Positions 2,723 to 35,869 of a DNA stretch of 64,000 nucleotides are shown piece by piece. Origin of the DNA: a virus (taxonomy: Duplodnaviria > Heunggongvirae > Uroviricota > Caudoviricetes); IMG/VR virus record IMGVR_UViG_2698536476_000008, one strand, 5' to 3'. Positions within the stretch are counted from its first letter, which is position 1; each line of letters opens with the position of its first letter. A program made the position numbers and the translations under genes. A model generated the notes under the pieces. The model made no database searches, was not told the origin of the DNA, and saw only the letters and a list, made by a program, of their open reading frames with translations.

Positions 2723-4152
2723 TCCTCCTCATACGAAATATTAAAGGTGGAGTTTTCTGTATCCAGATAAACGAAATCGTAAAAGCCGTTGGACTCATTC
2801 CACTCGACAAATTCCAGATAAAAGTCGCGGAAATAACCCAGCGTTTCGATAAATGCCCAAACGTCTTTTTTCTTGATTAGGATGTACTTGCCGACACGGT
2901 TCGGATCAAAGAAAGTTGAGTCACGCCCAAATTTTGTTTCCAGTGCCGACTTCAGCTCATCAGTCACGTTCTCAATGGTCAGGCTTGCCGATATCCGCCC
3001 AGTGATGGTGATCTTAAAGGGGAGTTTTCTGACCTCTTTATACGAGAATTTCTTGTTCAACTCATTCGGCACCTTCTTAAAGGCAGCCAGGATCATTTCT
3101 TCAAGCTCTGACTGGCTTTTGTTTGGATGCCATCCTGAAATAAATATCTTATTGATATTCCGAACATTATAAGCACCATCTAATTTCTCTTGCTGGCCTT
3201 CGCCCCATGCCTTTACCCAGGACAGTCCCGGGATGTTACGCACCAGAAAATACGTATAGTCCCCGCCCCATACGACCTGATCATCATAGGCAAGGTAATA
3301 TTGTGCACGATTACGTGTGATCTCCGTTGTTTCGGCATCGGTACCTGCGGTTATGGGTGTCGTTGTCTTAACTGAAATCAAATTAGCTAAATTAGCCGCA
3401 GAATCGACAGGAGTCAGGTTTTGGCCAGCAACCAGGGTTATATCTCCGTTGGTGCACCATACCTTAAGTGTAATGGTCGAGCCTTCTGGCGGTATTTGCC
3501 CAATTAGCCCATCACCGAATCGAACCCCCAACTGCTCGGATGGCTTATAAAACTCAACGTAGACCTGGCTTTTACTACCGGCTAACCGGAACATAGTGCT
3601 GGAAGACCACTGCGTGGTCTTACCATCGGTCGTCACGAATACTTCCAGCTTATAGCAGACAGCAGTGAGAGCCTTTGATAACACGACTTCCAGAAATTCT
3701 TTGGCTGCCGTAACGGTATATGTCACCTCCTGGATTTCCAACTGTGCCACTTCTACCGTACCGGTGCCGTCAACCAACCTGCATACATCCATAGTCATGT
3801 AAGGGTACTGGTCGTCAGATATTAAAGGCATATTTTTGGGGATTACCGCTGGGGCATCTTCACTTGTGGCGGTGATCTCAATCATCCCCGATGACGGTGT
3901 TGGCTTGGTACCAACGTAACTATTCGTTTCTGCCGCTGCCAGGATAGAGGAACGCCGCGTCGCGGTCGATATAAAGCCTTCAGCCAGCGCCGCATCGGCA
4001 TACTGAAAGCACCTGTAGACAATCTGGGTAATAAACAATGTCAGCATCGAGACAAATTGAGAGCCGACAAACTTCGACCAGAATGAATCTTTCTCGACAA
4101 GCTCTTCAAACTCTGCACGAATACTGTCTTTAGTCGGTGTTGTTTTACTCAT
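2719..4152 (-). CDS. Baseplate J-like protein (477 aa)
   Basis: ORF track; size and position between wedge-like and fibre genes; overlaps neighbours by 4 bp. Confidence 0.45.
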   Translation of the reverse strand: MSKTTPTKDSIRAEFEELVEKDSFWSKFVGSQFVSMLTLFITQIVYRCFQYADAALAEGFISTATRRSSILAAAETNSYVGTKPTPSSGMIEITATSEDAPAVIPKNMPLISDDQYPYMTMDVCRLVDGTGTVEVAQLEIQEVTYTVTAAKEFLEVVLSKALTAVCYKLEVFVTTDGKTTQWSSSTMFRLAGSKSQVYVEFYKPSEQLGVRFGDGLIGQIPPEGSTITLKVWCTNGDITLVAGQNLTPVDSAANLANLISVKTTTPITAGTDAETTEITRNRAQYYLAYDDQVVWGGDYTYFLVRNIPGLSWVKAWGEGQQEKLDGAYNVRNINKIFISGWHPNKSQSELEEMILAAFKKVPNELNKKFSYKEVRKLPFKITITGRISASLTIENVTDELKSALETKFGRDSTFFDPNRVGKYILIKKKDVWAFIETLGYFRDFYLEFVEWNESNGFYDFVYLDTENSTFNISYEEE

Positions 4153-28400: not shown

Positions 28401-29298
28401 GCACTGGAAAAACATTACTATTTATAAACTTTCTCGTGAGGCGGATCTGACCGACTTAGAAGATAAAAAGAAAATGATCCTTTTCACGCCATGCGGTAGT
28501 CAGGATATGGCCAAGTTCGGTTTTGTATCTCCATTTGGTGATAATTCCGAAGTTATCGCTATGCATGGAAATGGTTTTATCCTTGTTGAAGCAAAGCGCG
28601 AAACAAAAATTCTTCCCCCGCCGGTTATCCAGCGAGCTATTCAAGAAAAAATTGAAAAACTTGAGCAAGAACAAGCGCGTAAACTGAAGAAAACAGAGAA
28701 GGACTCCCTGAAAGACGAAGTTCTGCATTCTCTTCTGCCACGGGCTTTTTCAAAGTTTTCTGTTATCCAGGCGATCTACGACGGTTCAACTAAACGTATC
28801 TATATCAATGCCAGCGCGCGGCAGGCAGAGGATATGCTCGCGCTTATGCGTAAGTCTCTGGGTTCTCTTCCTGTTGTTCCCCTGAGTGTTGAAAATCCCA
28901 TTGAATTAACGCTGACCGACTGGGTACGTGATGGTAGTGCTCCACAGGGATTTCAAATGGGGGATGCGGCAGAACTTAAGGCAGTGCTTGAGGATGGCGG
29001 TATTGCCCGAGTGAAAAAGCAGGATTTGGGAAGCGATGAAATTTCCACACACCTGGAAGCTGGCAAGCTCGTTACTAAGTTGGCACTCGACTGGCAGAAC
29101 CGCATTAAATTTACACTGGACCATAACTTCAGCCTTACCAGCGTCAAATTTGCGGATGAATTGCTTGAGCAGAACTCTGATATTGATAGTGAAGATGTTG
29201 CGCAGCGACTGGACGCAGATTTCTTCCTGTTGACCAGTGAAATTTCGTGCCTGGTTGATGCTCTGGTAAATGCCCTTGGTGGAGAGGCTAAGCAGTGA
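28393..29298 (+). CDS. hrdC: RdgC-like recombination-associated protein
   Basis: RdgC-like length and pattern from ATG 28393; directly upstream of dmt as in P1. Confidence 0.7.
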
Positions 29299-31313
29299 AA
29301 GAGCTGTGCTATGGATCTGTTTGCAGTGGAATTGAAGCCGCGAGTATTGCCTGGGAACCGTTGGGTATGCGTCCGGCGTGGTTTGCTGAAATCGAGCCTT
29401 TTCCATCTGCCGTTCTTGCGCACCGCTGGCCCCATGTCGCCAACCTTGGCGACATGACAAAACTTGCCAAAAAAGTCCTGGCTGGGGAAATCGAATCCCC
29501 TGATGTGCTCGTCGGGGGTACGCCTTGTCAGGCATTCAGTATCGCGGGCTTACGTGGTGGGCTTGATGATGAACGCGGCGCGCTAACTTTGAAGTATGTG
29601 GAGCTTGCAAATGCAATTGACGACAAACGGTCTGAGTCCTTCCTCAAACCGACAGTTATCGTCTGGGAAAATGTCCCAGGAGTCCTGTCATCGGCAGATA
29701 ACGCCTTCGGATGTTTCCTTGCCGGATTGGCTGGAGAAGATGCGCCATTTGAACCAGGTGATCGACCTGAATCAGGAAAAAGTAACGCGTTCTGGCGGTG
29801 GGATGGCAAAACCGGTTGCCATGCTCCAAAGTGGCCGCAGTGTGGTTGTATTTATGGACCGCAGCGAAAGGTGGCCTGGAGAATCCTTGATGCCCAATAC
29901 TTCGGAGTGGCACAACGACGCCGACGCGTGTTTGTTGTCGCAAGTGCTCGAACAGACCTCGATCCCGCAACGGTACTTTTTGAGTTCGAAGGCGTGCGCC
30001 GGAATATTGCGCCGAGCAGAGGCGAGGGGAAGGAAACTACCAGATATACTTCAAACATCGCTATCAGATCTTGCGATGATACAAACATAGTTGCCATGGC
30101 ACATGGGCAAGGAGGGGCTGAGATAAAAACCGATAATTCGGCACCAACTTTGACATGTAACCATGAAGCACCAATTGTATTGCTCGTCGACGGTAGAATG
30201 CGCCGTCTTATCCCTGTCGAATGTGAAAGGCTGCAAGGTTTTCCTGATGGACATACATTGATCCCTACGGAAAAGCGTAAAAAAGTTTCTTCAGATGAAC
30301 TGGCATACCTTCGCAAAAACTATCCTGATTTGAGCGAAGAAGAGGCCGCGATGCTTGCAGCTGACGGACCGCGTTACAAAGCGATCGGCAATAGTATGGC
30401 GATACCAGTAATGCGCTGGATTGGCGATCGGATTGCCAAGGCTGCATGTCGGCAGAAGGAAGGGAGTGAAACAAAAGAGCGAAAAGTTAAACCAGCGGCA
30501 GAATTCGAACGGTCCATATTCAAATGGGCTGGTGGAAAATTTGGTGTTCTGGAACAAATCTTTCGCTATTTGCCAGAAGGGAAGCGCCTGATTGAGCCTT
30601 TCGTTGGTGGCGGAGCTGTCTTCATGAATGCCGGATACCAGGAAAATCTGCTAAATGATGTGAATGCTGACCTGATTAACTTTTACAAGACTCTGCAACG
30701 CGAGGCGCATTCACTTATCACTCTGGCACATCGTTTCTTCCAGGACTACAACACGCAGGAAGGATACCTGGCAGTACGGAATGCGTTTAACAAACAAGTC
30801 TATGATGATTTACATCGCGCAGCGGCGTTTTTGTTCCTGAACCGACATTGTTTTAACGGATTGACGCGTTACAACCAAGCCGGTGAGTTCAATGTCGGTT
30901 ATGGGAAGTATAAAACTCCGTATTTCCCATTGCAGGAGATGGAAGCCTTCCTTGGTGCGGAAGGGCGTTCTGAGTTTGTATGTGGTGATTTTGCTGCGGT
31001 GATTGAAGCTGCCGGAGAAGGAGATGTCATCTTTTGTGATCCGCCGTATGAACCGCTCCCAAATACAGAGGGATTCACGAACTATTCCGGTCATGACTTT
31101 AAGTTTGAAGAGCAAAAACGCCTGGCGTCTCTGTTGACGGATGCTCATCGCCGAGGTGCAAAGGTTCTCATTACTAACAGTGGCGCGCCAAACATCAGAG
31201 AACTTTATCAGGACAGTGGCTTCAGAGTGGAACCTCTTTTTGCCAGACGTTCTGTGTCTTGTAAGGGGGACACTCGAGGTGTTGCTCATGACGTTATAGC
31301 AATATTGCTCTAA
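29295..31313 (+). CDS. dmt: Bifunctional DNA methyltransferase (C5-cytosine domain fused to Dam-like N6-adenine domain)
   Basis: GTG start overlapping hrdC stop; [12 protein letters not shown] and ENVPG (C5-MTase) in N-half; FKWAGGK and DPPY (N6-adenine MTase) in C-half. Confidence 0.85.
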
Positions 31314-31331
31314 TAAATTTATTAGTGTAAT
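31304..31331. promoter_or_regulatory. Bipartite (inverted, overlapping) C1-operator-like site
   Basis: ATTGCTCTAATAAATTT followed by inverted half AAATTTATTAGTGTAAT; overlaps dmt stop. Confidence 0.65.
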
Positions 31332-31497
31332 ATCGCATCAATGAATCGTGATTTATAGAGCGATTTAGCTGTTAGCCGCGACAGGCGCGGCGGCAAGTAT
31401 GGCGGGGTAGTGACTCCTTCCCCCTCATGACGCCGAGTTGCCAGGTTGACCATACGCCTAAGTGGCAACACCGAAGTGCGTTACGAGCTTCCAGTTT
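31321..31497 (+). ncRNA. Candidate small RNA between operator and terminator (speculative)
   Basis: About 175-nt non-coding segment bounded by C1-operator-like site and a terminator; contains TATGGCGGGG resembling the c4-like block. Confidence 0.25.
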
Positions 31498-31523
31498 GCC
31501 CATCTTCGGGTGGGCGTTTTTTT
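31498..31523 (+). terminator. Rho-independent terminator
   Basis: GCCCA-TCTTCGGG-TGGGC followed by T7. Confidence 0.6.
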
Positions 31524-31704
31524 CAGGGTTTTCGTCATGGTTAGCGACTTTGCGGCGGTTTAGAAACTGACCATTAAAGTAAATGCAAACGATGATCTGA
31601 TGATGGTAGCGGCATAAGAAGCCAGACGCCACGGGGTATGAGTCGTCCCCCGTCAAAAAATCGACCGCAGAGTGTCCCCGTCTGTGTATTAGGGAACGGG
31701 GAGG

Positions 31705-31785
31705 CACAACAGGTAAGGGCGCTGGTGTGATTAACCAGATGAACGAGAAGGGGCCATCTGTTGGTCAGCGTCCTTTCCTGTTGCG
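31705..31785 (+). repeat. Long-stem hairpin element E
   Basis: Arms CACAACAGGTAAGGGCGCTG / CAGCGTCCTTTCCTGTTGCG with about 41-nt loop, followed by TCTTCTTTTC. Confidence 0.55.
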
Positions 31786-31988
31786 TCTTCTTTTCAGCGT
31801 AACAGCGGTGCTTAACAGCACTTTGGGTACAGTTCCACGAATTTACGGGTATATCCCGTCATGCTGAAAGCGCTAATCACGCTGGAAGCCAGGGTTATGC
31901 ATCCCCTGTTACCGAATTGCAGCCAGGGCGCGGTGCGCCGAAAAGCATACGGAGGTGGAAGCCCTCGCCGGAGACGTACCCGGCAAGT

Positions 31989-32064
31989 GATGGTGTAGCT
32001 CAGCGGTTAGAGCGGTTGACTGTTAATCAACGGGTCGATGGTTCAAATCCATCCACCATCGCCA
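31989..32064 (+). tRNA. tRNA-Asn (anticodon GTT)
   Basis: Cloverleaf by eye: acceptor GATGGTG/CACCATC, anticodon loop CTGTTAA, T-arm GGTTCAAATCC, encoded CCA. Confidence 0.9.
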
Positions 32065-32066
32065 AT

Positions 32067-32142
32067 GCCGGTTTAGCTCAGTTGGTAGAGCGCCTGCCTT
32101 GTAAGCAGGATGTCAGCGGTTCGATTCCGTTAATCGGCACCA
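32067..32142 (+). tRNA. tRNA-Thr (anticodon TGT)
   Basis: Acceptor GCCGGTT/AATCGGC, anticodon loop CTTGTAA, T-arm GGTTCGATTCC, encoded CCA. Confidence 0.9.
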
Positions 32143-32143
32143 G

Positions 32144-32230
32144 CACAACAGGTAAGGGTATTTTGCGACGTCGGAGATCGCCGAGCTTGGCAGAGGGTTC
32201 GAATCCCTACGAAGTACCCTTACCGTTGTG
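32144..32230 (+). repeat. Long-stem hairpin element A enclosing a T-arm-like motif
   Basis: 16-bp stem CACAAC(A)GGTAAGGGTA / TACCCTTACCGTTGTG enclosing 54 nt that include GGGTTCGAATCCC; starts 2 nt after tRNA-Thr. Confidence 0.55.
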
Positions 32231-32350
32231 ATGAATGCGCAGGCTGATGCGCGAAAGACATTGCAGCTATTGCGGAAAAGAGCTGTTCGGCGGGGCAATT
32301 AAACGCCCGTGAGAGTCTGAAATAACCGCAAGCCGGAGATCAGCACCGGT

Positions 32351-32429
32351 CATCACAACACAACAGGTAAGGGCATTCTCCCTTATGGGGCTTGGCTTAA
32401 ATGCATCGAGTGCTCTTACCGTTGTGATG
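32351..32429 (+). repeat. Long-stem hairpin element B
   Basis: Arms CATCACAACACAACAGGTAAGGGC / GCTCTTACCGTTGTGATG. Confidence 0.55.
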
Positions 32430-32567
32430 AAGTGCAGCTCTTTGAAGCAACCAGAAGATAAGCATCTGGCTTCACAACATAAACCGCAGGAACGACCAAT
32501 AAACGGTAGTCCGTATGGAGAACACCCCGTTGAGGAAGAGGCCTGGCCGGAACCGTAACCGGCACTA

Positions 32568-32657
32568 CAACGTTGAGAACACTGGCGTAACGGGGTCATA
32601 TCCCAATCTACGAATAAATGTTGCGTTGCAGCGTGACAACCAGTGTTCTCAACATTG
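32568..32657 (+). repeat. Long-stem hairpin element C
   Basis: Perfect 14-bp stem GTTGAGAACACTGG / CCAGTGTTCTCAAC enclosing about 54 nt with GGGGTCATATCCC; tail ATTGTGGTGAATGCACAGGCTGATG. Confidence 0.55.
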
Positions 32658-32840
32658 TGGTGAATGCACAGGCTGATGTGCCGCAACTACAGTAGTGCGC
32701 GCTTTGCGGGGCTTGCTACAACCCTGTGTCGGAGTTCAGCACCGACCATCACAGTTTGATTCTCTGGCATGAGCATAACGCTGAAATAAGTCCAGCCTGG
32801 TGCGGCCCGATCACCCGCCGTTAGCTCCACGAAACGGAGC

Positions 32841-32923
32841 ACGTAACAGGTAAGAGCATTCTCCTGTAACGGGTTCATATCCCAATCTACAGGTCCACCA
32901 AGAATGCTCTTTCCGTTGCGGTG
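32841..32923 (+). repeat. Long-stem hairpin element D
   Basis: Arms ACGTAACAGGTAAGAGCATTCT / AGAATGCTCTTTCCGTTGCGGTG enclosing GGGTTCATATCCC. Confidence 0.55.
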
Positions 32924-33070
32924 AATGCGGCTAAGCGCACGCGGGGAAATGGTTATATCAGTCCATTCATTTCTCCTTGTTTCCCCGTCCACGGTGGATA
33001 ACCAGCCAAAGGACACCGGGAGGCACCCGGCACCGCAGCTTTTTTATTCGTTAAATAATGGAGTGAGAGG

Positions 33071-33307
33071 ATGCAGAACAATTCGAACAAATGTCGAACG
33101 CTATGGGTGCGGTTATATATTTATGCCGTCCTCTGTTTGATTGTGTCACTGGTTCTGTATGTTTGGCTTTTGCCAAATATGATCTCATCTAACAGCACAA
33201 TACTTGTATTGTTGGGAGTCCTTCTCGCGCTCATTTACCCGGCTTTCGCAGTAGTCTTTTTTCGTGAAAAAACCAGGAAATTAATTAATGAAAAAAACGT
33301 TGATTAG
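33071..33307 (+). CDS. Small two-TM membrane protein (78 aa)
   Basis: Hydrophobic segments; overlaps start of SPFH gene. Confidence 0.5.
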   Translation: MQNNSNKCRTLWVRLYIYAVLCLIVSLVLYVWLLPNMISSNSTILVLLGVLLALIYPAFAVVFFREKTRKLINEKNVD

Positions 33308-34115
33308 TGCAGCGATTATTTTGGGTTCTTTATGTCTGACCGGATGCGATCGGGTAGAGCCAGGTAACGTAGGGATCAAAGTAAATAAGCTGGGGGATGA
33401 TAAAGGTATCGGTGAAGTAGTTGGCGTTGGTCGCTACTGGACAGGCTTGAATACTGAAGTTTATATCTTCCCGACCTTTAAGCAAATGAAGACATACGAT
33501 GAGCCGTTCAGCTTCCAGATGAGCGACGGAACAACCATTGGTTACCACATCGGCGTAGCCTACAAGGTTGATCCAGCAAAAGTCACAACGGTATTTCAGA
33601 CCTATCGCAAAGGTGTAGATGATATTACTGATACCGATCTACGCCAGAAGGTTGCAGATGCTCTGAACCGGTTAGCCAGCAAAATGACCACCGACAAATT
33701 TATCGACGGTGGCAAATCTGAATTGCTTGATGCAGCCCTTAAAGACATTCAGGAAGAAATGACGCCAATCGGCATTCAGGTGATGAGCCTCTCTTATGTA
33801 GGTAAGCCAGAATACCCGCCAACAGTTATTGACAGTATTAACGCCAAAGTCACGGCAAACCAAAAAACCCTGCAACGCGAGCAAGAGGTCAAACAACGTG
33901 AAGCAGAGGCCAACATGCTGCGCGCGGAAGCTGCCGGACAGGCTGATGCTATTCGCACAAAAGCCCAGGCCGAAGCTGATGCCATTCGTTTACGTGGTGA
34001 AGCTCTGCGCCAGAACCCCGGTGTTATGGAGTTGGAAGCGATCAACAAATGGAACGGTACATTACCGCAGTATATGACCAGTAATACCGCTGTTCCGTTT
34101 GTTCCGGTGAAATAA
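33288..34115 (+). CDS. SPFH/band-7-like lipoprotein (275 aa)
   Basis: Signal peptide with lipobox LTGC; C-terminal Ala/Glu/Arg/Gln-rich coiled coil; family assignment by pattern only. Confidence 0.55.
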   Translation: MKKTLISAAIILGSLCLTGCDRVEPGNVGIKVNKLGDDKGIGEVVGVGRYWTGLNTEVYIFPTFKQMKTYDEPFSFQMSDGTTIGYHIGVAYKVDPAKVTTVFQTYRKGVDDITDTDLRQKVADALNRLASKMTTDKFIDGGKSELLDAALKDIQEEMTPIGIQVMSLSYVGKPEYPPTVIDSINAKVTANQKTLQREQEVKQREAEANMLRAEAAGQADAIRTKAQAEADAIRLRGEALRQNPGVMELEAINKWNGTLPQYMTSNTAVPFVPVK

Positions 34116-34142
34116 AAGCGTAAGCAAAATTGGCAGTAATCC

Positions 34143-34218
34143 GGCCCTTTAGCTCAGTGGTTAGAGCTGGCGACTCATAATCGCACGGTCACCGGTTCAA
34201 GTCCGGTAGGGGCCACCA
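34143..34218 (+). tRNA. tRNA-Ile2 type (anticodon CAT, lysidine-type by resemblance to E. coli ileX)
   Basis: GGCCCTTTAGCTCAGTGGTTAGAGC...CTCATAA...GGTTCAAGTCC...GGGGCCACCA. Confidence 0.85.
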
Positions 34219-34498
34219 TATTTGGTTGTAACACGGCGTCTGGCACATGCGTCGTTAGCGGTCTGGTGACGTTAAAAGGGGGGAACCTTGCCCCTAGCTC
34301 AGGCAACGAACCAGGTAGCCGGAATGTGCAAGCCACCGTTTGTTGTTTCTCGGGTAAAGGGATTCACCATCCTGGCGATTCGGTGTGACAGCCGGGAAGA
34401 GTCCGGCGCATTAATCCTGATTTTCTGGTGATGACTCATATCGTTAGGAGTGATTTGAGTATGCCGATTATATCTGACATTCAGCACGCCTGGGTGGA

Positions 34499-35869
34499 GT
34501 GCTAATGTCTGCATCCCCTCTTGAATCCATGCCAAATTCCCTTAGTGCAGAACAAGCTGTACTTGGTGGCTTAATGCTTGATAACTGCCGCTGGGATGAA
34601 GTTGCAGATCGTATAGTTGCTGATGATTTTTATACCAGTGCTCATCGTGAAATTTTCAGTGAGATGGAGAGGTTATTAAGTCATGGCAAACCGATTGATT
34701 TGATAACACTTGCTGAAGCACTTGAACAGAACGGTAAATTAGAACGCGCCGGTGGTTTTGCGTACCTTGCGGAGATGTCAAAGAACACGCCCAGCGCGGC
34801 AAATATTTGTGCTTATGCGGATATCGTTCGTGAACGCGCGGTTGTTCGTGAAATGATTTCCGTCGCAAATGAAATAGCCGAAGCTGGATATGCGCAGGAT
34901 GGCAGGGGCAGCAATGAATTGCTGGATATGGCCGAGCGCCGCGTTTTTGAAATAGCTGAAAAACGACAAAAGAGCGGTAGTGGTCCAAAAGATATCGCCA
35001 GCATTCTCGATGCAACGGTATCTCGCATAGAAGAGTTGTTTCAGCGACCACATGATGGTGTAACGGGGCTTGATACGGGATTTACCGATATCAATAAGAA
35101 GACGGCAGGGCTTCAGCCGTCCGATCTCATCATTGTCGCCGCCCGCCCATCTATGGGGAAGACCACGTTTGCGATGAATCTCGTCGAAAATGCCGCAGTT
35201 CGTAACGATAAGCCCGTATTGGTTTTTAGCCTTGAGATGCCGAGCCACCAGCTGATGATGCGCTCACTGGCTTCTCTTGCACGCGTTGATCAGACTCGTA
35301 TTCGGACAGGGCAACTTAACGACGAGGATTGGGCGCGGGTTTCTGGCGCAATGGGTATTCTGTTGGACAAGCAGAATATTTTTATTGATGACTCAAGCGC
35401 CCTGACACCTACAGAGCTTCGTTCCCGCGCTCGTCGTGTTTATAAAGAAAATGGTGGTTTGAGCATGATTATGATCGACTACCTGCAACTTATGCGCGTC
35501 CCCGAGCTGCAAGATAACCGAACGCTGGAAATTGCCGAGATTTCTCGCTCACTGAAGGCGTTGGCGAAGGAATTACAAGTACCGGTGGTGGCATTGTCAC
35601 AACTTAATCGATCGCTTGAACAGCGTGCGGACAAACGACCGGTAAATTCAGATTTACGTGAATCAGGAGCAATTGAGCAGGACGCAGACCTGATCATGTT
35701 TCTGTATCGCGACGAAGTTTATCACCCGGATAGCGAAATGAAGGGCATTGCCGAGGTAATTATCGGAAAGCAACGAAATGGCCCAATTGGCACGGTGAGA
35801 TTGGCTTTTAACGGCCAATACTCACGGTTTGATAACTATGCTGGTGCTGACTGGCAAGAGGATTATTAA
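34499..35869 (+). CDS. ban: DnaB-family replicative helicase (Ban-like)
   Basis: Walker A AARPSMGKTTFAMN; DnaB C-terminal motifs LIMFLYRDEVY, GKQRNGPIG. Confidence 0.85.
   Translation: MLMSASPLESMPNSLSAEQAVLGGLMLDNCRWDEVADRIVADDFYTSAHREIFSEMERLLSHGKPIDLITLAEALEQNGKLERAGGFAYLAEMSKNTPSAANICAYADIVRERAVVREMISVANEIAEAGYAQDGRGSNELLDMAERRVFEIAEKRQKSGSGPKDIASILDATVSRIEELFQRPHDGVTGLDTGFTDINKKTAGLQPSDLIIVAARPSMGKTTFAMNLVENAAVRNDKPVLVFSLEMPSHQLMMRSLASLARVDQTRIRTGQLNDEDWARVSGAMGILLDKQNIFIDDSSALTPTELRSRARRVYKENGGLSMIMIDYLQLMRVPELQDNRTLEIAEISRSLKALAKELQVPVVALSQLNRSLEQRADKRPVNSDLRESGAIEQDADLIMFLYRDEVYHPDSEMKGIAEVIIGKQRNGPIGTVRLAFNGQYSRFDNYAGADWQEDY

Follow-up and report, generated by a model that had tools for sequence, protein, structure and literature searches.

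The stretch of viral DNA analysed here (IMG/VR record IMGVR_UViG_2698536476_000008; Caudoviricetes; 64,000 nucleotides (nt)), hereafter called the window, comes from a P1-like phage-plasmid (Punavirus) and includes its ban operon. Within this operon, at positions 33071 to 34115, lie two overlapping genes, which encode a 78-amino-acid (aa) hairpin membrane protein and a 275-aa SPFH lipoprotein and which together form an accessory membrane module of two genes that many phages carry. We propose, with a probability of roughly 0.5, that this module consists of a periplasm-facing SPFH scaffold and an inner-membrane hairpin partner, and that it would protect or organise the membrane of the infected cell. 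The molecular description contained in this proposal is very probably correct, while the role assigned to the module, namely inner-membrane organisation or protection in the infected cell, is clearly more tentative. In the window the pair occupies the place of the P1 genes tciABC. Less appreciated is that the hairpin protein and the SPFH lipoprotein are a conserved module reaching as far as coliphage N4 and distant bacteria.

The SPFH lipoprotein and its hairpin partner

The module and its parts are positioned in the window as follows.

33046..34133, + strand: swapped cassette of 1088 base pairs (bp) with no similarity to P1 (boundaries from blastn against P1)
33071..33307, + strand: gene for the 78-aa hairpin membrane protein (open reading frame (ORF); phrog_1130, E 6.3e-16)
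33113-33172, + strand: first transmembrane segment (TM1) of the hairpin
33173-33199, + strand: conserved hairpin loop P-N-M-I-S-S-N-S-T
33200-33259, + strand: second transmembrane segment (TM2) of the hairpin, followed by a basic C-terminal tail
33288..34115, + strand: gene for the 275-aa SPFH lipoprotein (Pfam Band_7; phrog_200, E 2.3e-113)
33288..33347, + strand: predicted lipoprotein signal peptide of the SPFH protein, ending L-T-G-C, with the codon of Cys20 at 33345-33347 (from the sequence)

The two ORFs overlap by 20 nt, and the smaller one encodes two hydrophobic stretches, just as an earlier, sequence-only reading of this DNA had described. A plausible Shine-Dalgarno sequence precedes each of them, namely GGAG, 7 nt before 33071, and AGGA, 9 nt before 33288. 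Between phage lineages, the ratio of non-synonymous to synonymous substitution rates (dN/dS) was 0.16 for the hairpin gene and 0.04-0.10 for the SPFH gene, which shows that both are real genes under purifying selection and not chance ORFs.

The identification of the larger product as an SPFH lipoprotein, also made in the sequence-only reading, was borne out by its domain, its fold and its lipobox. Pfam Band_7 (PF01145) matched residues 22-208 (33351-33911) with 107.6 bits against a gathering cut-off of 23.6 (E 9.7e-31), and the PHROGs family of the protein, phrog_200, is labelled 'lipoprotein'. Its N-terminus reads MKK, a hydrophobic stretch and LTGC (that is, MKKTLISAAIILGSLC-LTGC), so that the signal peptide ends in a lipobox of the form [LVI][ASTVI][GAS]C. 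The lipobox cysteine, Cys20, did not vary among 20 sequences with identities as low as 34%, and the aspartate that follows it at position +2 (Asp21) was invariant among 11 aligned enterobacterial and phage sequences. A +2 aspartate is the signal by which lipoproteins avoid the Lol system and are retained in the inner membrane. Because of this Asp+2, the protein, a predicted lipoprotein that is presumably lipidated at Cys20, is most likely retained at the outer face of the inner membrane in enterobacteria.

An AlphaFold2 (AF2) model of the monomer (predicted local distance difference test score (pLDDT) 82.9) consisted of an anchor helix, an alpha/beta SPFH domain, a 65-residue helix (residues 178-242; 33819-34013), a short helix and a low-confidence tail (residues 255-275), the latter being the part that, judging from the model, would need neighbouring subunits. 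The C-terminal tail carries the conserved sequence K-W-N-G-x-L-P ... P-F (34050-34112). In Foldseek searches, whole-chain matches to HflK, HflC, erlin1/2, prohibitin and stomatin had E values of 4e-14 to 1e-10, and a probability of 1.00 was reached by HflK/C, erlin, prohibitin, stomatin, flotillin and the major vault protein; a QmcA chain (8z5g, from the QmcA-YbbJ complex) was also among the matches. All of the matched chains are subunits of rings, domes or cages, and the top fold matches have SPFH domains that face away from the cytoplasm.

Since HflK and HflC are the closest solved relatives by both sequence (HflK being nearest, E 1.8e-4) and fold, the lipoprotein might be a modulator of FtsH, which would mimic or compete with HflK/C at the periplasmic face and thus alter FtsH proteolysis, much as hfl controls CII of lambda. 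That HflK/C and FtsH act in lambda is established, and the module shares with HflK/HflC the order of anchor, SPFH domain, long helix and C-terminal tail as well as, by prediction, the periplasmic orientation. Its occurrence in early operons of temperate phages would likewise suit such a function, as would the NCBIfam matches, which, weak as they are, are to hflC and hflK. However, at 24.7 and 23.3 bits (that is, 23-25 bits) these matches lie far below the equivalog cut-offs of 134.4 and 159.4 (134-159), and identity to HflK/HflC is only ~17-19%. Moreover, HflK and HflC are tandem paralogs with N-terminal transmembrane anchors and without a dedicated hairpin partner, whereas the module has such a partner and a single SPFH gene with a lipobox cysteine; no second SPFH ORF was present between 31000 and 37000. 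Finally, no link leads from the hairpin protein to FtsH, and the family also occurs in virulent phages that have no lysogeny decision to make (N4, PVP-SE1 and Erwinia S6) and in non-phage chromosomal contexts. We consider a function as FtsH modulator unlikely, even though it ranks first among the rival explanations.

The annotation of the SPFH lipoprotein in public records is variable. It is labelled 'serine protease' in the records of RCS47, phiP27, Stx2 (Shiga toxin 2) phages, P88 and Erwinia S6, and Pseudomonas phage records even call it 'transposase'. We rejected the protease label, given that Band_7 was the only significant Pfam match and no peptidase domain was found. RCS47 p0073 and the phiP27 'putative serine protease' belong to the same families as the window proteins and their label has no domain support; it appears to be a propagated misannotation.

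The hydrophobic stretches of the 78-aa protein span residues 15-34 and 44-63. Lysine and arginine residues are placed at its ends only, with three at the N end, none in the nine-residue loop and five at the C end, which predicts an N-in/C-in topology with both termini in the cytoplasm. Across 17 diverse aligned homologs, Pro35, Ser39 and Gly49 were invariant, and the loop motif of the family is P-x-x-x-S. The corresponding PHROGs family, phrog_1130, is labelled 'membrane protein'. The protein is conserved but is missing from some annotations: in the matched plasmid and Escherichia coli records, among those listed, only the SPFH gene was annotated and the 78-aa ORF was absent (the PLSDB gene table being incomplete), and the 62-aa homolog in Stx2 phage records is unannotated as well.

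The sequence-only reading had likened the pair to an NfeD/SPFH-type pairing. As an analogy to operons of an SPFH gene and its partner this held, since a gene for a small membrane protein overlaps the SPFH gene as in E. coli qmcA-ybbJ, and coupling to such a gene is also seen in YqiK-YqiJ and in the archaeal stomatin pair PH1511/PH1510. Membership in the NfeD family did not hold. Neither the hairpin protein nor five homologs from other clades had a Pfam match to NfeD (PF01957) at E <= 1, while E. coli YbbJ, used as positive control, was matched at E 3.5e-12. Only 15 residues follow TM2, which is too short for the NfeD domain of ~57 residues, and hhalign gave a probability of 11.8% when a 17-sequence hairpin profile was compared with YbbJ. 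On these grounds we rejected an NfeD identity. SPFH domains of the QmcA/YbbJ type face the cytoplasm, unlike that of the window protein, which is predicted to be periplasmic and lipid-anchored. A canonical SPFH/NfeD operon, in which an oligonucleotide/oligosaccharide-binding (OB) fold would let the hairpin protein, as a short NfeD, bind the SPFH protein, is thus refuted as far as family membership is concerned, and is the least probable of all the explanations considered, with next to no chance of being correct.

Given its size, its two-helix N-in/C-in topology and its charged C-terminal tail, all of which are typical of class II holins, the hairpin protein could alternatively be a membrane-permeabilising effector that is sequestered or timed by an SPFH ring, acting as a lysis timer or as a switch in abortive infection or exclusion. 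The tight coupling of the two genes would be in line with such a caged effector, as would the position of the N4 module beside gp18, annotated as 'superinfection exclusion'. Faint Pfam similarities of the hairpin protein were to holin families, yet with E values of 0.05-0.2 these were not significant and remain at noise level. The module also lies outside the lysis cassettes of P1, N4 and lambdoid phages, occurs in ordinary chromosomal neighbourhoods (loci L092 and L093) and has no match in PADLOC, and forms in which hairpin and SPFH domain are in one frame (see below) favour a structural partner over a toxin. We regard the caged effector as improbable and rank it below the FtsH modulator.

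Conservation of the pair in phages and bacteria

We examined 86 SPFH loci from the window, annotated phages and IMG/VR contigs. In 84 of the 86, a hairpin ORF overlapped the start of the SPFH gene, by 1, 4 or 20 nt. At the remaining two, the contig ended or the hairpin gene was disrupted by an insertion, meaning that all 84 uninterrupted loci keep the hairpin directly upstream. In an IMG/VR P1-like contig (L046, ~3700-3960), foreign DNA resembling an insertion sequence displaces most of the hairpin ORF and leaves the SPFH gene intact; this contig is a natural variant without the hairpin partner. Hairpins of P1-type, P2-type (P88), lambdoid Stx2, N4, Erwinia S6 and PVP-SE1 phages all matched phrog_1130, with E values of 6e-16 to 2e-26. 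The hairpin lies 5' of the SPFH gene in P88 and the Stx2 lambdoid phages, where it is unannotated, and the same order is found in Erwinia phage S6 and, as gp19/gp20, in coliphage N4. PVP-SE1, an rV5-like Salmonella phage (locus L104, 2145-3379), encodes a soluble 54-aa protein, gp117 (phrog_13358), between the hairpin gp116 and the SPFH protein gp118, which is followed by two further small membrane proteins, gp119 and gp120. Altogether, SPFH homologs were found in 392 of 50,697 phage records, a good number of which come from virulent phages, strictly virulent ones included.

The pairing extends to bacteria. A genome scan with a 6-sequence alignment yielded distant relatives (42-56%), and at 11 of 14 such loci, from Dyella and other Lysobacterales, Leptospirales, Saprospirales, a metagenome-assembled genome (MAG) of Eubacteriaceae and others, a hairpin ORF that shares the loop motif was located directly upstream. 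The module also occurs in the non-phage chromosomal neighbourhoods mentioned above. In 14 inspected cluster representatives (34-48% identical, 330-390 aa), the hairpin was in-frame with the SPFH domain and ahead of the conserved lipobox cysteine. These forms fit a single topology, with one helix leading in, one leading out, a third hydrophobic segment leading outward again and the SPFH domain outside the cytoplasm, although some of the apparent in-frame forms may have internal starts.

The two parts of the module differ in their nucleotide conservation. Similarity of ~86% to the P88 and Stx2 copies (window 33342-34115) starts ~55 nt into the SPFH gene, beyond the bulk of the signal peptide, and continues to the stop codon in P88, while the hairpin and the signal-peptide part are much more diverged from P88 and Stx2. 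This step in divergence suggests either a mosaic joint or a faster evolution of the membrane-embedded parts.

Exchange with tciABC in the ban operon

The window aligns by blastn to P1 (NC_005856) through position 33045 and resumes at 34134, and the 1088-bp cassette in between stands in for P1 70208-70923, a segment of 716 bp with tciA-tciB-tciC. The spacing at the borders is the same in P1 and in the window, with 25 nt between the left junction and the first start codon and 9 nt between the right one and trnI. The G+C fraction of the cassette is 0.456, compared with 0.480 for the window. The sequence-only reading had correctly placed the pair between a tRNA-Thr and a tRNA-Ile gene, where P1 has tciABC, and its interpretation as a cargo swap was upheld too. 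Homology of the window proteins to tci products was rejected (BLASTP E 0.18; hhalign 0.4%), and Pfam revealed neither of the domains that were matched by the P1 proteins, TerB in TciA and DUF3927 in TciB, in either window protein. The two cassettes thus share the ban-operon slot between upl and trnI, and no sequence relationship; TciA is a TerB-domain protein and not an SPFH protein. The description given of the P1 interval was right with respect to tciABC and had omitted the opposite-strand genes plp and upl, which are kept beside the cassette in the window, as in P1.

The slot is variable, as had been anticipated, and the exchange frequent. In PLSDB, 189 plasmids carried the hairpin/SPFH module and 191 the full-length tciABC; nearly all of the plasmids with either allele were ~90-100 kb long and non-mobilizable. 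A relative of the module was found in 460 of 5426 complete E. coli genomes (8.5%), 192 of which had the full P1-type cassette. RCS47 and vB_EcoM-813R1 have the identical cassette in the identical slot (99-99.8% identity; 99-100% when other P1-like phages are counted in), several 'P1' isolates carry the same cassette with the SPFH gene labelled 'putative SPFH domain protein', and the cassette of Ro157c2YLVW is 97.5% identical. tciABC has been described as variable region 7, one of eight regions that vary strongly among P1-like elements, and as 'lost' in 'nearly one-half' of them (PMC9603915); the passages of that paper cited here state no replacement for the lost genes. The swap of tciABC for the SPFH cassette is accordingly real but common, the allele being already in databases and the variability of the slot already published. 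Taken alone, the window represents an ordinary, common allele of this published variable region.

Around the cassette, the operon region of the window is laid out as follows.

29295-31313: dmt, first gene in the order of the operon region
31304..31331, + strand: C1 repressor operator (P1 Op72a/b), which overlaps the Pban promoters (core identical to P1 in alignment; P1 annotation of Obanab and P1ban/P2ban)
31989-32064, + strand: tRNA-Asn, equivalent to P1 trnA (ARAGORN; Rfam tRNA, 73-75 bits for tRNA-Asn and tRNA-Thr; P1 annotation)
32067-32142, + strand: tRNA-Thr, equivalent to P1 trnT (ARAGORN; Rfam tRNA; P1 annotation)
32267..33016, - strand: plp- and upl-like ORFs, part of the P1 backbone and outside the swapped cassette (ORFs; RCS47 annotates Plp and Upl here)
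34143..34218, + strand: CAT-anticodon tRNA, equivalent to P1 trnI (tRNA-Ile2) (ARAGORN; 100% identity to P1 across trnI)
34499..35869, + strand: ban (DnaB-like helicase), downstream in the same operon (ORF; P1 and RCS47 annotation)
after ban: dbn, at the end of the order of the operon region

The CAT tRNA gene starts 27 nt past the SPFH stop codon. It is inside the stretch of 100% identity to P1 that covers trnI, and hence the 'tRNA-Ile' of the sequence-only reading and the 'tRNA-Met' reported by ARAGORN are one and the same gene. On the other side of the cassette, the plp/upl stretch was 98% identical to P1 by blastn (32409-33045). The plp/upl region (32143-33045) contains three to four imperfect direct repeats with units of ~200-280 nt, a 34-nt core of which is located at 32219, 32415, 32648 and 32909, and has ~173 bp (32236-32408) in addition to P1. 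The minus-strand plp- and upl-like ORFs have motifs in common, and may be paralogous repeats or a region that does not code for protein. Antisense to the upl-like ORF and immediately 5' of the cassette (32917-33037, + strand), there was also a sub-threshold Rfam match to STnc100, a gammaproteobacterial small RNA (37.8 bits, gathering score 47; E 6e-6).

Expression context and proposed role

The core of the C1 operator and Pban is conserved 5' of the module, the cassette contributes hardly any upstream DNA (25 nt ahead of the first start codon), and a terminator scan found none between the SPFH gene and trnI/ban. From these features we infer that the module should belong to the C1-repressed ban transcript, and should be made on derepression rather than in the quiet lysogen. 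A promoter scan of 31200-34600 gave no match and was uninformative, as it missed the documented Pban too. A strong terminator-like hairpin with a T-run is present at 31494-31516 (+ strand), in the counterpart of the P1 'dicF-like region' between Pban and the tRNA genes; if functional, it would reduce how much transcription reads through to the tRNAs, the two module genes and ban.

In P88 the module is part of an early operon, between cox and the replication gene. Its copy in Stx2 phages is flanked by cI and by xis/int, on the same strand. In N4 (NC_008720, 7668-9092; locus L110, 3669-5093), it comes just after the early RNA polymerase genes gp15/gp16 and adjoins gp18, whose annotation reads in full 'superinfection exclusion, similar to P22 gp17'. 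These positions, together with the homologs in virulent phages, point to a role during lytic growth rather than to classical lysogenic conversion.

Lysogenic conversion nevertheless deserves consideration, since a prophage-encoded HflK/C-like SPFH protein of Pasteurella, PM0222, was reported to affect capsule, adhesion, serum sensitivity and virulence and to signal via TLR1/2 (PMC9872710). By analogy with these envelope and virulence effects, the lipoprotein could be a surface factor that is made in the lysogen and alters the envelope or recognition by the host immune system, and the category given to the hairpin family in PHROGs is 'moron, auxiliary metabolic gene and host takeover'. The likeness to PM0222 is one of description, however. 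In P1 the module sits in a C1-repressed operon with no promoter of its own, the family is widespread in virulent phages, and Asp+2 predicts retention at the inner membrane instead of surface exposure. We judge this explanation to be quite improbable and place it third among the rivals, behind the FtsH modulator and the caged holin-like effector and ahead of the canonical NfeD pair.

The reading that we favour, a periplasmic scaffold partnered by an inner-membrane hairpin, would work as follows. Produced from repressor-controlled early operons, the 275-aa SPFH protein would be exported and lipid-anchored via Cys20 on the outer face of the inner membrane, where its chains may build a ring or dome like those of HflK/C, prohibitin and erlin, and so fence off a patch of membrane. 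The translationally coupled 78-aa hairpin would sit in that membrane too, its two ends cytoplasmic and its short, conserved periplasmic P-x-x-x-S turn directed toward the SPFH domains, and could be a membrane-embedded partner or client of the SPFH protein. Together they might organise the infected cell's inner membrane or protect it, either by keeping it intact and energised or by excluding incoming phage DNA or colicins. The niche of the module would then be the same general one as that of the TerB-type tciABC cassette it replaces.

Several observations weigh against this proposal. With regard to partnership, the identity between phage types is 25-46% for the hairpin and 91-93% for the SPFH protein, and such fast divergence is unusual for a tight structural partner; furthermore, Pseudomonas TL, phiEa104 and phiCbK have SPFH homologs without a phrog_1130-type hairpin. 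With regard to location, Asp+2 is not kept in distant SPFH members, and the Pasteurella prophage protein, likened to ours by description only, was found in outer-membrane vesicles (PMC9872710), so that retention at the inner membrane is not certain. Since the promoter scan was blind to Pban, an internal promoter is possible. An exclusion role received no support from PADLOC-DB 2.0, which gave no match for the SPFH protein and one at noise level (E 0.022) for the hairpin, and the reason for which phages carry SPFH genes has been called unclear (PMC13239085). The literature on phage or prophage SPFH proteins and on N4 gp19/gp20 yielded no functional study of the hairpin/SPFH family, and a survey of Pseudomonas aeruginosa SPFH proteins made no mention of phage, signal peptide or lipobox.

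A bolder version of the scaffold-and-hairpin proposal is that the module constitutes an undescribed phage membrane device, in which a periplasmic SPFH cage encloses and controls a small pore-forming or membrane-remodelling hairpin. Such a device might set the timing of lysis, block superinfecting DNA or colicins, or counter abortive infection that targets the membrane, and would be functionally interchangeable with TerB-type cassettes as well as common to virulent (N4, rV5-like) and temperate (P1, P2-like, Stx) phages. We see a slim chance for it, less than for the FtsH modulator and more than for a simple caged effector.

SPFH scaffolds paired with small membrane proteins are, as such, a system of a known kind. 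In Bacillus subtilis, for instance, the SPFH protein YdjI is encoded in the ydjG-ydjH-ydjI-pspA operon with small membrane partners and, in the part of that work drawn on here, is connected with protection from membrane stress (PMC8581546). As far as this description allows a comparison, YdjI differs from the module in SPFH subfamily and partners, and no pspA gene was found near the module. Counterparts of the module are gp19 (a 68-aa membrane protein) and gp20 (a lipoprotein) of N4, which belong to the same families, phrog_1130 and phrog_200, and differ in having ~62% protein identity and in being from a virulent phage. Against this background, the module is a distinct version of the system, with a lipid-anchored, predicted periplasmic scaffold and a hairpin partner that is not an NfeD protein. 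It is also abundant, with relatives in 8.5% of complete E. coli genomes and in 392 phage records, and the module itself in about as many P1-like plasmids of PLSDB as full tciABC. Both P1 and N4 are tractable model phages that carry the module, and P1-like elements that differ at this slot provide a near-isogenic comparison of the SPFH cassette with tciABC.

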